Notes under the pieces: model-generated
Told to the model about the DNA's origin: nothing
Databases searched by the model: none
Seen by the model: only the letters and a program-made list of their open reading frames with translations
Source: a virus
DNA: 64,000 bases
Virus record (IMG/VR): IMGVR_UViG_3300032331_000813
Span: 20,466-84,465 of that record
Strand: one strand, 5' to 3'
Part shown: in pieces, positions 58,478-59,177 of the stretch
Layout of the letters: each line of letters opens with the position of its first letter
Position numbering within the stretch: the first letter of the stretch is position 1
Program-made: the position numbers and the translations under genes

Positions 58478-58708
58478 ATGAGACAAGTAGTAATAGATGA
58501 ATTAACAGAAAGAATAAAAAACTTTGAAAAAGTGGCAAAACCGCGTGATGTGGGAACCGGTATGACTGGTTCTTTTAACATGTTTAATTATACCATTCAA
58601 AGTGGAACTGCCATGACACAGGAAGAATTTGATTCATGTACATATGACGATTGGTTACGAGAAGAACATATTCGTGTGTATAAAAAAGTCAATAACCTTC
58701 TTGGATGA
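58478..58708 (+). CDS. hypothetical protein (76 aa)
   Basis: GGAGG RBS; present in the ORF track. Confidence 0.6.
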   Translation: MRQVVIDELTERIKNFEKVAKPRDVGTGMTGSFNMFNYTIQSGTAMTQEEFDSCTYDDWLREEHIRVYKKVNNLLG

Positions 58709-58711
58709 TAG

Positions 58712-58719
58712 ACTAAATA
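58712..58719 (+). promoter_or_regulatory. late-promoter-like motif upstream of the tmRNA
   Basis: ACTAAATA a few nt before the first paired segment of the tmRNA acceptor piece. Confidence 0.5.
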
Positions 58720-58795
58720 TAAGTTATTGCTGTATGAAGCAAAGAGAAAAGTGTTCTGGACGCGGGTTCGACTCCCGCCAGGTCCACCATAAAGT

Positions 58796-58876
58796 ATTTT
58801 ATTAGCTCAGTTGTGTAGAGCGTCCGCAGAATTCTAGATAAGCGGTTGGTCGTTGGTTCGAGGCCAACATAGAATA
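58796..58876 (+). tRNA. tRNA-like (pseudo-tRNA) cloverleaf inside the tmRNA intervening segment; irregular anticodon arm, no encoded CCA
   Basis: Acceptor ATTTTAT/ATAGAAT, U8-A9, D-arm GCTC-AGTTGTGTA-GAGC, anticodon stem CCGC/GCGG with a 14-nt loop, variable loop TGGTC, T-arm GTTGG-TTCGAGG-CCAAC. Confidence 0.65.
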
Positions 58877-58972
58877 CTTTATAATGGGCCTGCCCTGGTT
58901 TCGACAGAGCAAAGAGTAACAGAGTGGACAGCACGGTAGGCGATGACCGTTAATCAAGCAAATTTCATAACT

Positions 58973-59005
58973 GCAAACGATGAGTTATATTCTTTAGCCG
59001 CTTGA
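58973..59005 (+). other. tmRNA proteolysis tag reading frame (A)ANDELYSLAA*
   Basis: ATAACT precedes resume codon GCA; GCA AAC GAT GAG TTA TAT TCT TTA GCC GCT TGA. The stop codon sits in the loop of the hairpin CTTTAGCC/GGCTAAGG. Confidence 0.88.
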
Positions 59006-59048
59006 GGCTAAGGTGCAGTAGGACTTACTGTATAAAAGAAACAACCAG

Positions 59049-59070
59049 AACCCGCTTCGGCGGGTTTCTT
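59049..59070 (+). terminator. Rho-independent terminator ending the tmRNA
   Basis: AACCCGC-TTCG-GCGGGTT followed by TCTTATT. Confidence 0.8.
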
Positions 59071-59177
59071 ATTAGTAGTAACACTAATAAAGATTCATAC
59101 TTTTCACTATGTTATTTAGGTAATGGCAACATATATAAACGATATATACAATGTCAATTTGATATAGGAGAACAATT

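Follow-up and report, generated by a model that had tools for sequence, protein, structure and literature searches.

The spacer of a circularly permuted (two-piece) phage tmRNA gene folds as a tRNA-like cloverleaf, which we take, with a probability of roughly 60%, to be a tRNA-derived passenger in an exchangeable slot between the CCA end and G1 of such genes, its helices and loop core being under selection. It is probably a mobile cassette, structurally constrained and freed by RNase P and 3' trimming, and it looks neither necessary for maturation of the tmRNA nor capable of working as a tRNA. The cloverleaf lies in a window of 64,000 nucleotides, i.e., the whole stretch of DNA that was analysed, which is part of the 84-kb fragment recorded for an uncultured virus. 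Contigs related to it are up to 364 kb long, and DNA of this virus was met again in lake and river metagenomes.

The tmRNA gene and the cloverleaf in its spacer

The host gene occupies positions 58728-59071 and is a beta-type permuted tmRNA that matched RF04321 with 138.4 bits and RF01850 with 128.2 bits; ARAGORN reported it as tmRNA* with the tag ANDELYSLAA. An acceptor piece ending in CCA lies upstream, the coding piece starts from G1, and both G3.U70 and a tag ORF are present, as is characteristic of permuted tmRNAs. The features of the gene and its spacer are as follows:

58728-58789, + strand: tmRNA acceptor piece, i.e., the 3' half of the tRNA-like domain with the T arm (RF04321/RF01850 alignments and sequence)
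58779-58785, + strand: 3' strand of the tmRNA acceptor, followed by discriminator A58786 and the encoded CCA at 58787-58789 (alignments and sequence)
58790-58885, + strand: intervening segment (spacer) of 96 nt, not in the mature tmRNA (between CCA and G1 in the RF04321 alignment)
58790-58802, + strand: 5' strand of the closing helix, comprising 6 outer nt and the 7-nt 5' strand of the 'acceptor' (13 standard pairs with 58869-58881)
58796-58876, + strand: tRNA-like cloverleaf (RF00005, 40.9 bits, E = 5.8e-8)
58805-58821, + strand: D arm, with stem GCUC/GAGC and loop AGUUGUGUA (RF00005 alignment)
58823-58846, + strand: equivalent of the anticodon arm, with 4 bp, a U.U apposition and a 14-nt loop (58828-58841) that holds AAUUCUAGAUA
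58847-58868, + strand: variable loop UGGUC and T arm (GUUGG / UUCGAGG / CCAAC), adjoining the 3' strand of the closing helix
58869-58881, + strand: 3' strand of the closing helix, with the acceptor 3' strand at 58869-58875, A58876 at the discriminator position and the outer strand to 58881
58882-58885, + strand: 4-nt linker UAAU before the tmRNA G1 (UGAU or UAAU in most relatives)
58886-59071, + strand: tmRNA coding piece from G1 (58886), with the G3.U70 acceptor (RF04321/RF01850, ARAGORN)
58973-59005, + strand: tag ORF (ANDELYSLAA, stop), within the coding piece
59048-59067, + strand: terminator-like hairpin, within the coding piece

Upstream of the terminator at 59048, as far back as the acceptor piece, neither a terminator-like site nor a strong + strand promoter match was found. 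Elsewhere in the window, positions 6053-29323 (+) form one ORF of 7756 codons.

The initial annotation had read the 96-nt spacer as a tRNA-like cloverleaf, and an Infernal-type score bears this out. When the spacer was scanned alone with cmscan, positions 58796-58876 matched RF00005 with 40.9 bits (gathering score 29; E = 5.8e-8), and the homologous spacer described below reached 44.8 bits. The match was not reported in an Rfam scan of the whole window since tRNA and beta_tmRNA belong to one clan and compete for the same stretch. A search of the whole 84-kb record with the RF00005 profile gave no match; our assignment of the fold is taken from the scan of the isolated spacer and not from that search. 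ARAGORN called a tRNA in the spacer only when an insertion ('intron') in the anticodon loop was allowed, and the anticodons it then proposed were inconsistent. For annotation, this means that tRNA-like matches inside permuted tmRNA genes are masked by clan competition, with ARAGORN missing the one in the window as well.

In the cloverleaf, the acceptor is formed by 58796-58802 paired with 58869-58875, with one U.G (58799/58872), and six more pairs (58790-58795 with 58876-58881) lengthen it; since A58789-U58882 is also possible, the helix comprises 13-14 bp, as had been proposed from the letters. The other irregularities listed earlier were likewise recovered from sequence and alignment, alongside otherwise canonical D and T arms. 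The D stem (58805-58808/58818-58821) carries a loop that reads GUG rather than GG, the anticodon stem (58824-58827/58842-58845, plus U.U at 58823/58846) ends in the 14-nt loop, and no CCA is encoded after A58876, which is paired with U58795 in the predicted precursor fold. The T stem (58852-58856/58864-58868) closes a canonical T loop, UUCGAGG. Core nucleotides of tRNA are present both in the body (U8, A9, A14, G15 with C48, A21 and G26) and on the T side (G53-C61, U54, U55, C56, purine 57 and A58); at the elbow, the D-loop partner of the T loop is GUG in the window and AUG in a variant from a lake. The cloverleaf has a folding energy of -23.4 kcal/mol vs. -25.5 for the minimum free energy structure, and the spacer's z-score of -3.19 was equalled by 1 of 200 shuffled sequences. 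A decoding tRNA would have a 7-nt anticodon loop on a 5-bp stem, whereas the loop measures 14 nt in the window and 16 nt in the second carrier.

Spacers of related phage tmRNAs and the second carrier

Related loci were fetched by way of a neighbouring gene for a 1457-aa protein, giving 75 phage loci, 36 of them with a permuted tmRNA, and additional pattern scans extended the set to ~150 phage tmRNA genes. Spacers in this set range from 9 to 382 nt. Among the 114 unique spacers from viral-contig scans that were surveyed for a closing helix, most have one of 7-14 bp that starts 0-2 nt past the CCA and is separated on its 3' side from G1 by 4-6 nt (usually UGAU or UAAU). The 'extended acceptor stem' of the window is its version of a family-wide closing helix, and its 5' strand resembles the common consensus UAAAGCAUAYUA. 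The interiors enclosed by this helix are unrelated to one another and include hairpins, small ORFs, T-arm mimics and, in cyano-type genes, an intact tRNA-Asn. Of 95 unique spacers sampled without regard to T loops, 4 have a T-loop motif, compared to 0.64 expected from shuffles. Spacers picked for a T loop close to G1 mostly have their T arm within 0 to 2 nt of the closing helix's 3' strand, and T-arm mimics occupy this place in at least six other spacer classes. The spacer of contig L088 (L088:5908-6003) holds two in tandem (AGUGG-UUCAAUU-CCACU and UGAGG-UUCGAAU-CCUCG), the second of which abuts the closing helix.

Several of these loci had features of their own. Many spacers encode a hydrophobic peptide of ~20-26 codons (L049:14215-14302, L221, L200, L185, L208, L139, L154, L212 and L156); its Shine-Dalgarno sequence (UAAGGAG or UAAAGGG) is placed in the 5' strand of the closing helix, and the reading frame terminates at the UGA of the linker UGAU. 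In L043, L074, L015, L053 and L025, longer spacers have ORFs of 38-100 codons. An intact tRNA-Asn(GUU) fills the spacers of cyano-type (RF01851) tmRNAs at L090:2387-2491 (-), L104:1857-1961, L105:7624-7728 and L081:6912-7016; these tmRNAs stand within phage tRNA clusters of the order Asp-Tyr-Thr, followed by the tmRNA with Asn inside. Stenotrophomonas phage Marzo (L001:1477-1851) and other cultured Menderavirus phages, among them Moby and Mendera, have a beta-type permuted tmRNA flanked by tRNA-Leu and tRNA-Thr; its spacer measures 56-57 nt and its closing helix 9 bp, and the gene is unannotated in several records. An HNH gene lies beside the tRNA cluster of Marzo but not beside that of Yut2. 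In relatives (L003-L077), matches to the 1457-aa protein cover the same residues but extend over 2.5 to 6.4 kb of DNA, a pattern suggestive of introns or inteins in the gene; L078 has a group I intron (RF00028) close to its tmRNA (L078:934-1161). Two leads were dropped. CUAG as a spacer-wide signal was only weakly enriched (49 of 134 spacers vs. 33.6 +/- 5 in shuffles), and the spacers of the L083 class, examined as tRNAs, are not tRNAs by Rfam and have a T-arm mimic with an insignificant mascRNA match, so that no clean succession of decay stages leading from a tRNA to a hairpin was shown.

Among the contigs scanned, only L099, a 14.6-kb viral contig, carries the same cloverleaf. Three more viral-contig patterns and one looser scan of metagenome contigs added no carrier beyond it; a stricter viral-contig pattern returned no carrier, and the phage GenBank collection yielded only ~75% generic tRNA similarity. 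A T-loop-in-spacer pattern run on cellular genomes gave chance matches in GC-rich coding DNA. A candidate nested tRNA-Thr on L237 was actually a tRNA beside a standard-form mini tmRNA of 66 nt, which has no tag ORF and matches RF00023 with 75 bits. That contig (L237:3731-7806), from a 'Candidatus Iainarchaeum' MAG, also holds 22 tRNA genes and a ROOL RNA (298 bits), and it looks like a mis-binned phage or bacterial fragment.

L099 and the 64-kb window have nothing else in common. In a tree of mature tmRNAs, L099 stood beside L088 and the window near L221, separated by a branch with 97% SH-aLRT support. Between the two carriers, identity is 82% in the spacer vs. 69% in the acceptor piece and 75% in the coding piece, whereas each carrier and its nearest relative show the reverse: L099 and L088 are 94-97% identical in the flanks and 58% in the spacer, and the window and L221 are 86-92% and 57% identical, respectively. 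Since the two tmRNA backgrounds of the cloverleaf are not sisters and their near relatives hold other spacers, the cassette was exchanged long after the permutation. The closing helix is shared by the family, the interior differs in close kin, and the same interior recurs in a distant background; judged from these alignments, the spacer is exchanged as a unit between tmRNA genes. The conserved flanks of the tmRNA presumably provide the sites of recombination by which cassettes would move from one phage tmRNA gene to another. A structured non-coding RNA joins the cargos of the 'throw-away' spacer of phage two-piece tmRNAs, and such a cargo can exceed the surrounding tmRNA in conservation.

RNAalifold on a MAFFT alignment mis-aligns the anticodon arm, and base pairs were therefore tabulated in a register set by hand. 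Of 26 pairs in the two carriers, six are altered on both sides yet remain paired and none is broken, a result that comes from one comparison since the carriers amount to two full sequences and one 150-nt contig. The acceptor, D and T stems of the window are the same as those of L099, including an identical D arm and the acceptor U.G; this identity could partly reflect recent transfer, not selection. The anticodon stem differs at all five of its positions: four show compensatory changes on both sides and a U.U is replaced by G-C. In addition, two outer pairs of the closing helix have changed on both sides. The anticodon loop has 14 nt in the window and 16 nt in L099, with an identical 11-nt core, AAUUCUAGAUA. 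The 150-nt contig, assembled from a lake DNA run, is a third variant with three differences in the spacer, all in the D and T loops (G58813>A in the former, positions 58860 and 58863 in the latter). From these very few sequences, selection appears to maintain the helices of the cloverleaf and its loop core, unlike in a decaying relic.

Maturation and possible roles of the cloverleaf

The 5' end of tmRNA is made by RNase P (PMC3985003), precursors of permuted tmRNAs are cut by tRNA processing enzymes (PMC11915505), and the RNase P cleavage site is set by a constant distance from the tRNA elbow, measured along the stack of T arm and acceptor (PMC4919913). On this basis, we suggest that the spacer is transcribed within a single tmRNA precursor, in which the closing helix would double as an AU-rich acceptor stem and keep the 3' and 5' ends of the tmRNA together. 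RNase P would cut 5' of the tmRNA G1 (58886) and, 12 bp from the elbow of the cloverleaf, also between U58795 and A58796; the geometry of the acceptor-T stack is compatible with this predicted cleavage. The cuts would leave a 6-nt trailer on the CCA end of the tmRNA and a 9-nt trailer on the cloverleaf, both of which could be trimmed by exonucleases or RNase Z, releasing an L-shaped RNA of ~81 nt. Since its anticodon arm ends in a loop of 14-16 nt, such an RNA cannot decode. If the cleavage model holds, the tRNA body reduces the problem of making the 3' end of the acceptor piece to one RNase P cut. However, the predicted site lies within a helix in which the whole leader pairs with the trailer; cleavage there may be impeded or displaced, leaving room for RNase III or RNase E. 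In two metatranscriptome and two DNA runs searched with positions 58650-59100, RNA contigs cover both pieces of the tmRNA but not the interior of the spacer, and the contigs that join across the spacer are those of relatives with other spacers.

The initial annotation had suggested that the cloverleaf recruits RNase P/Z to excise the spacer. Recruitment is plausible, with the acceptor-T stack and the elbow nucleotides of the T loop intact, yet it is not required: tmRNAs that are 86-97% identical to those of the carriers in their mature parts have unrelated spacers (small ORFs, hairpins) with no tRNA features, and the spacers of more distant relatives are only 9-12 nt long. The cloverleaf is therefore not a general requirement for maturation. 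A narrower version, in which the window's own phage needs it to recruit these enzymes for a correct CCA end and G1, would account for a stack that abuts the closing helix, for the T-arm mimics at the same position in other spacer classes and for the enrichment of the T-loop motif over shuffles. Nevertheless, the tRNA-like domain of tmRNA is itself a substrate of RNase P (PMC3985003), an enzyme that does not need a conserved loop on the anticodon arm, and we consider a dedicated signal quite improbable. A neutral relic, i.e., an unselected tRNA gene decaying since the permutation event or an old capture, appears very unlikely. Permuted genes are thought to arise by tandem duplication and loss of the outer parts (PMC3978253), which would fit such a relic, as would the frequent location of phage tmRNA genes within tRNA clusters, the intact tRNA-Asn in cyanophage-type spacers and the resemblance of the cloverleaf body to tRNA-Asn. 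Among 161 tRNAs in the fetched loci, its nearest match was indeed the tRNA-Asn nested in cyanophage tmRNA spacers, with which the cloverleaf of L099 has G73 and a portion of its anticodon stem in common; given the narrow margin and the generic D and T arms, an origin from tRNA-Asn is a lead only. Against a relic stand the six compensated pairs with none broken, the retention of the canonical core positions listed above and the two non-sister tmRNA backgrounds, whose close kin (86-97% identical in the flanks) hold other spacers; the earlier idea that the cloverleaf descends from the tRNA gene through which the permutation arose is not supported by this distribution. Least credible is an unusual amber-reading tRNA. 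The heptamer UUCUAGA at the centre of the loop does place U33, CUA and purine 37 in register, with one closing A-U pair in both carriers, and some relatives have genuine tRNA-CUA genes, but no stable stem can be drawn under the heptamer within a loop of 14-16 nt, CCA is missing, and pairing in the AU-rich acceptor includes the discriminator position. Moreover, ORFs read with the standard code (table 11) cover 96.6% of the window, with TAG as the rarest stop (3 of 37), and the tRNA-CUA genes of relatives, unrelated in sequence to the cloverleaf, were ruled out as its ancestors. The amber reader raised by the initial annotation can hardly be upheld.

The passenger reading remains our preferred one, although in its pure form it does not account for an 11-nt loop core kept on a rewritten stem. 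The core could be the active part of an RNA that acts in trans after release, the tmRNA precursor serving only as a vehicle for expression and processing. Targets of such a mimic might include a host tRNA-targeting nuclease (the RNA being a decoy or sponge), a tRNA-binding enzyme or a phage factor. Consistent with this, the spacer is better conserved than the mature tmRNA flanks (82% vs. 69-75%), the anticodon stem is wholly rewritten yet paired while the loop core and the AU-rich acceptor with its U.G are identical, the core tertiary nucleotides of the cloverleaf are retained, and a possibly related 15-nt motif, GCAGAAUUCUAGAUA, recurs in other phage tRNA clusters, within a small hairpin that shortly precedes tRNA-Ala. 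However, the loop showed no complementarity to the tmRNA gene and its matches in the rest of the window stay within about twice chance, only two carriers turned up among the viral contigs scanned, with none added by the looser metagenome-contig scan, and the match of GCAGAAUUCUAGAUA in other clusters is near the chance level for that scan. We regard action in trans as unlikely on balance, though worth entertaining. In the same tentative vein, the cloverleaf might be a mobile, selected mimic, freed by RNase P, that presents AAUUCUAGAUA on a tRNA body and diverts a factor that binds anticodon arms, e.g., a tRNA-cleaving defence nuclease. If so, the tmRNA spacer would be a launch pad for counter-defence RNAs. 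The conserved 11-nt loop on its freely covarying stem offers a concrete experimental handle on tRNA mimicry in the conflict between phage and host.

Known systems and related RNA elements

A tRNA fold within a longer precursor is familiar from mascRNA/MALAT1 and the MEN-beta tRNA-like elements (Rfam RF01684), from mitochondrial tRNA punctuation and from the spacer tRNAs of rRNA operons. In systems of the mascRNA type, cuts by RNase P and a 3' enzyme set the ends of the neighbouring RNA, and mascRNA, too, has an aberrant anticodon arm. The element in the window differs from these in organism and has no sequence relationship to them; the tRNA-like domain of its flanking tmRNA is itself a substrate of RNase P, and related genes do without the element. 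Should the cleavage model hold, the released RNA would be a natural counterpart of mascRNA in a bacterial virus.

Closer likenesses occur in tmRNA genes themselves. The initial annotation held that no tmRNA spacer of such structure had been described, which is nearly right: one intact tRNA-Ala has been published in the spacer of a permuted tmRNA, that of GCA-2688965 sp002688965.2, where its authors described it as unique in a set of 11,946 permuted sequences (Nawrocki, Petrov and Williams 2025, PMC11915505). Both are tRNA-shaped RNAs within a permuted tmRNA spacer that tRNA processing enzymes could free, but the tRNA-Ala is high-scoring and intact, whereas the element in the window has a 14-16 nt loop, no CCA, an AU-rich acceptor supplied by the closing helix, and a phage as its carrier. 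The nested tRNA-Asn (L090/L104/L105) fills the same slot with its T arm abutting the 3' end of the spacer, and it is the tRNA that the body of the window's element most resembles; it is, however, a working tRNA with a GC-rich acceptor of its own in a cyano-type (RF01851) gene, whereas the window's element sits in a beta-type tmRNA and cannot decode. Comparison with homologous spacers, proposed earlier as a check, thus gave a cloverleaf with covariation in L099 and an intact tRNA-Asn in cyano types, while the interiors of other relatives are unrelated. Spacers with small ORFs (L049, L221, L043, L074, L053 and others) are alike in having a closing helix and in being swapped like cassettes; their cargo is an ORF, whereas that of the window is a structured non-coding RNA.

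Other tRNA genes and tRNA-associated hairpins were observed in these phages and in metagenome contigs. A well-formed tRNA with anticodon CUA (amber suppressor; ARAGORN 'Pyl') lies 0.6-2.5 kb downstream of the tmRNA in four relatives (L006:13093-13167, L043:11797-11871, L061:14574-14648 and L077:12340-12412), and none is present in the window. A conserved hairpin of ~55 nt is located 12 nt upstream of tRNA-Ala(UGC) in L252:9595-9665, L249, L243, L246, L248, L251 and L255. It holds GCAGAAUUCUAGAUAGC, nearly the anticodon-loop region of the window, a likeness that may be due to chance; the 15-nt match, GCAGAAUUCUAGAUA, exceeds what the scan pattern demanded and is still within reach of chance. 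Finally, a tRNA-like gene with normal acceptor, D and T arms occurs on metagenome contigs (L109:54-143, L114, L115:9104-9193 and L116:6315-6404). Its anticodon arm of ~11 bp is tipped by AUUCUAGAU, and ARAGORN lists it as tRNA-??? with a 2-base anticodon.
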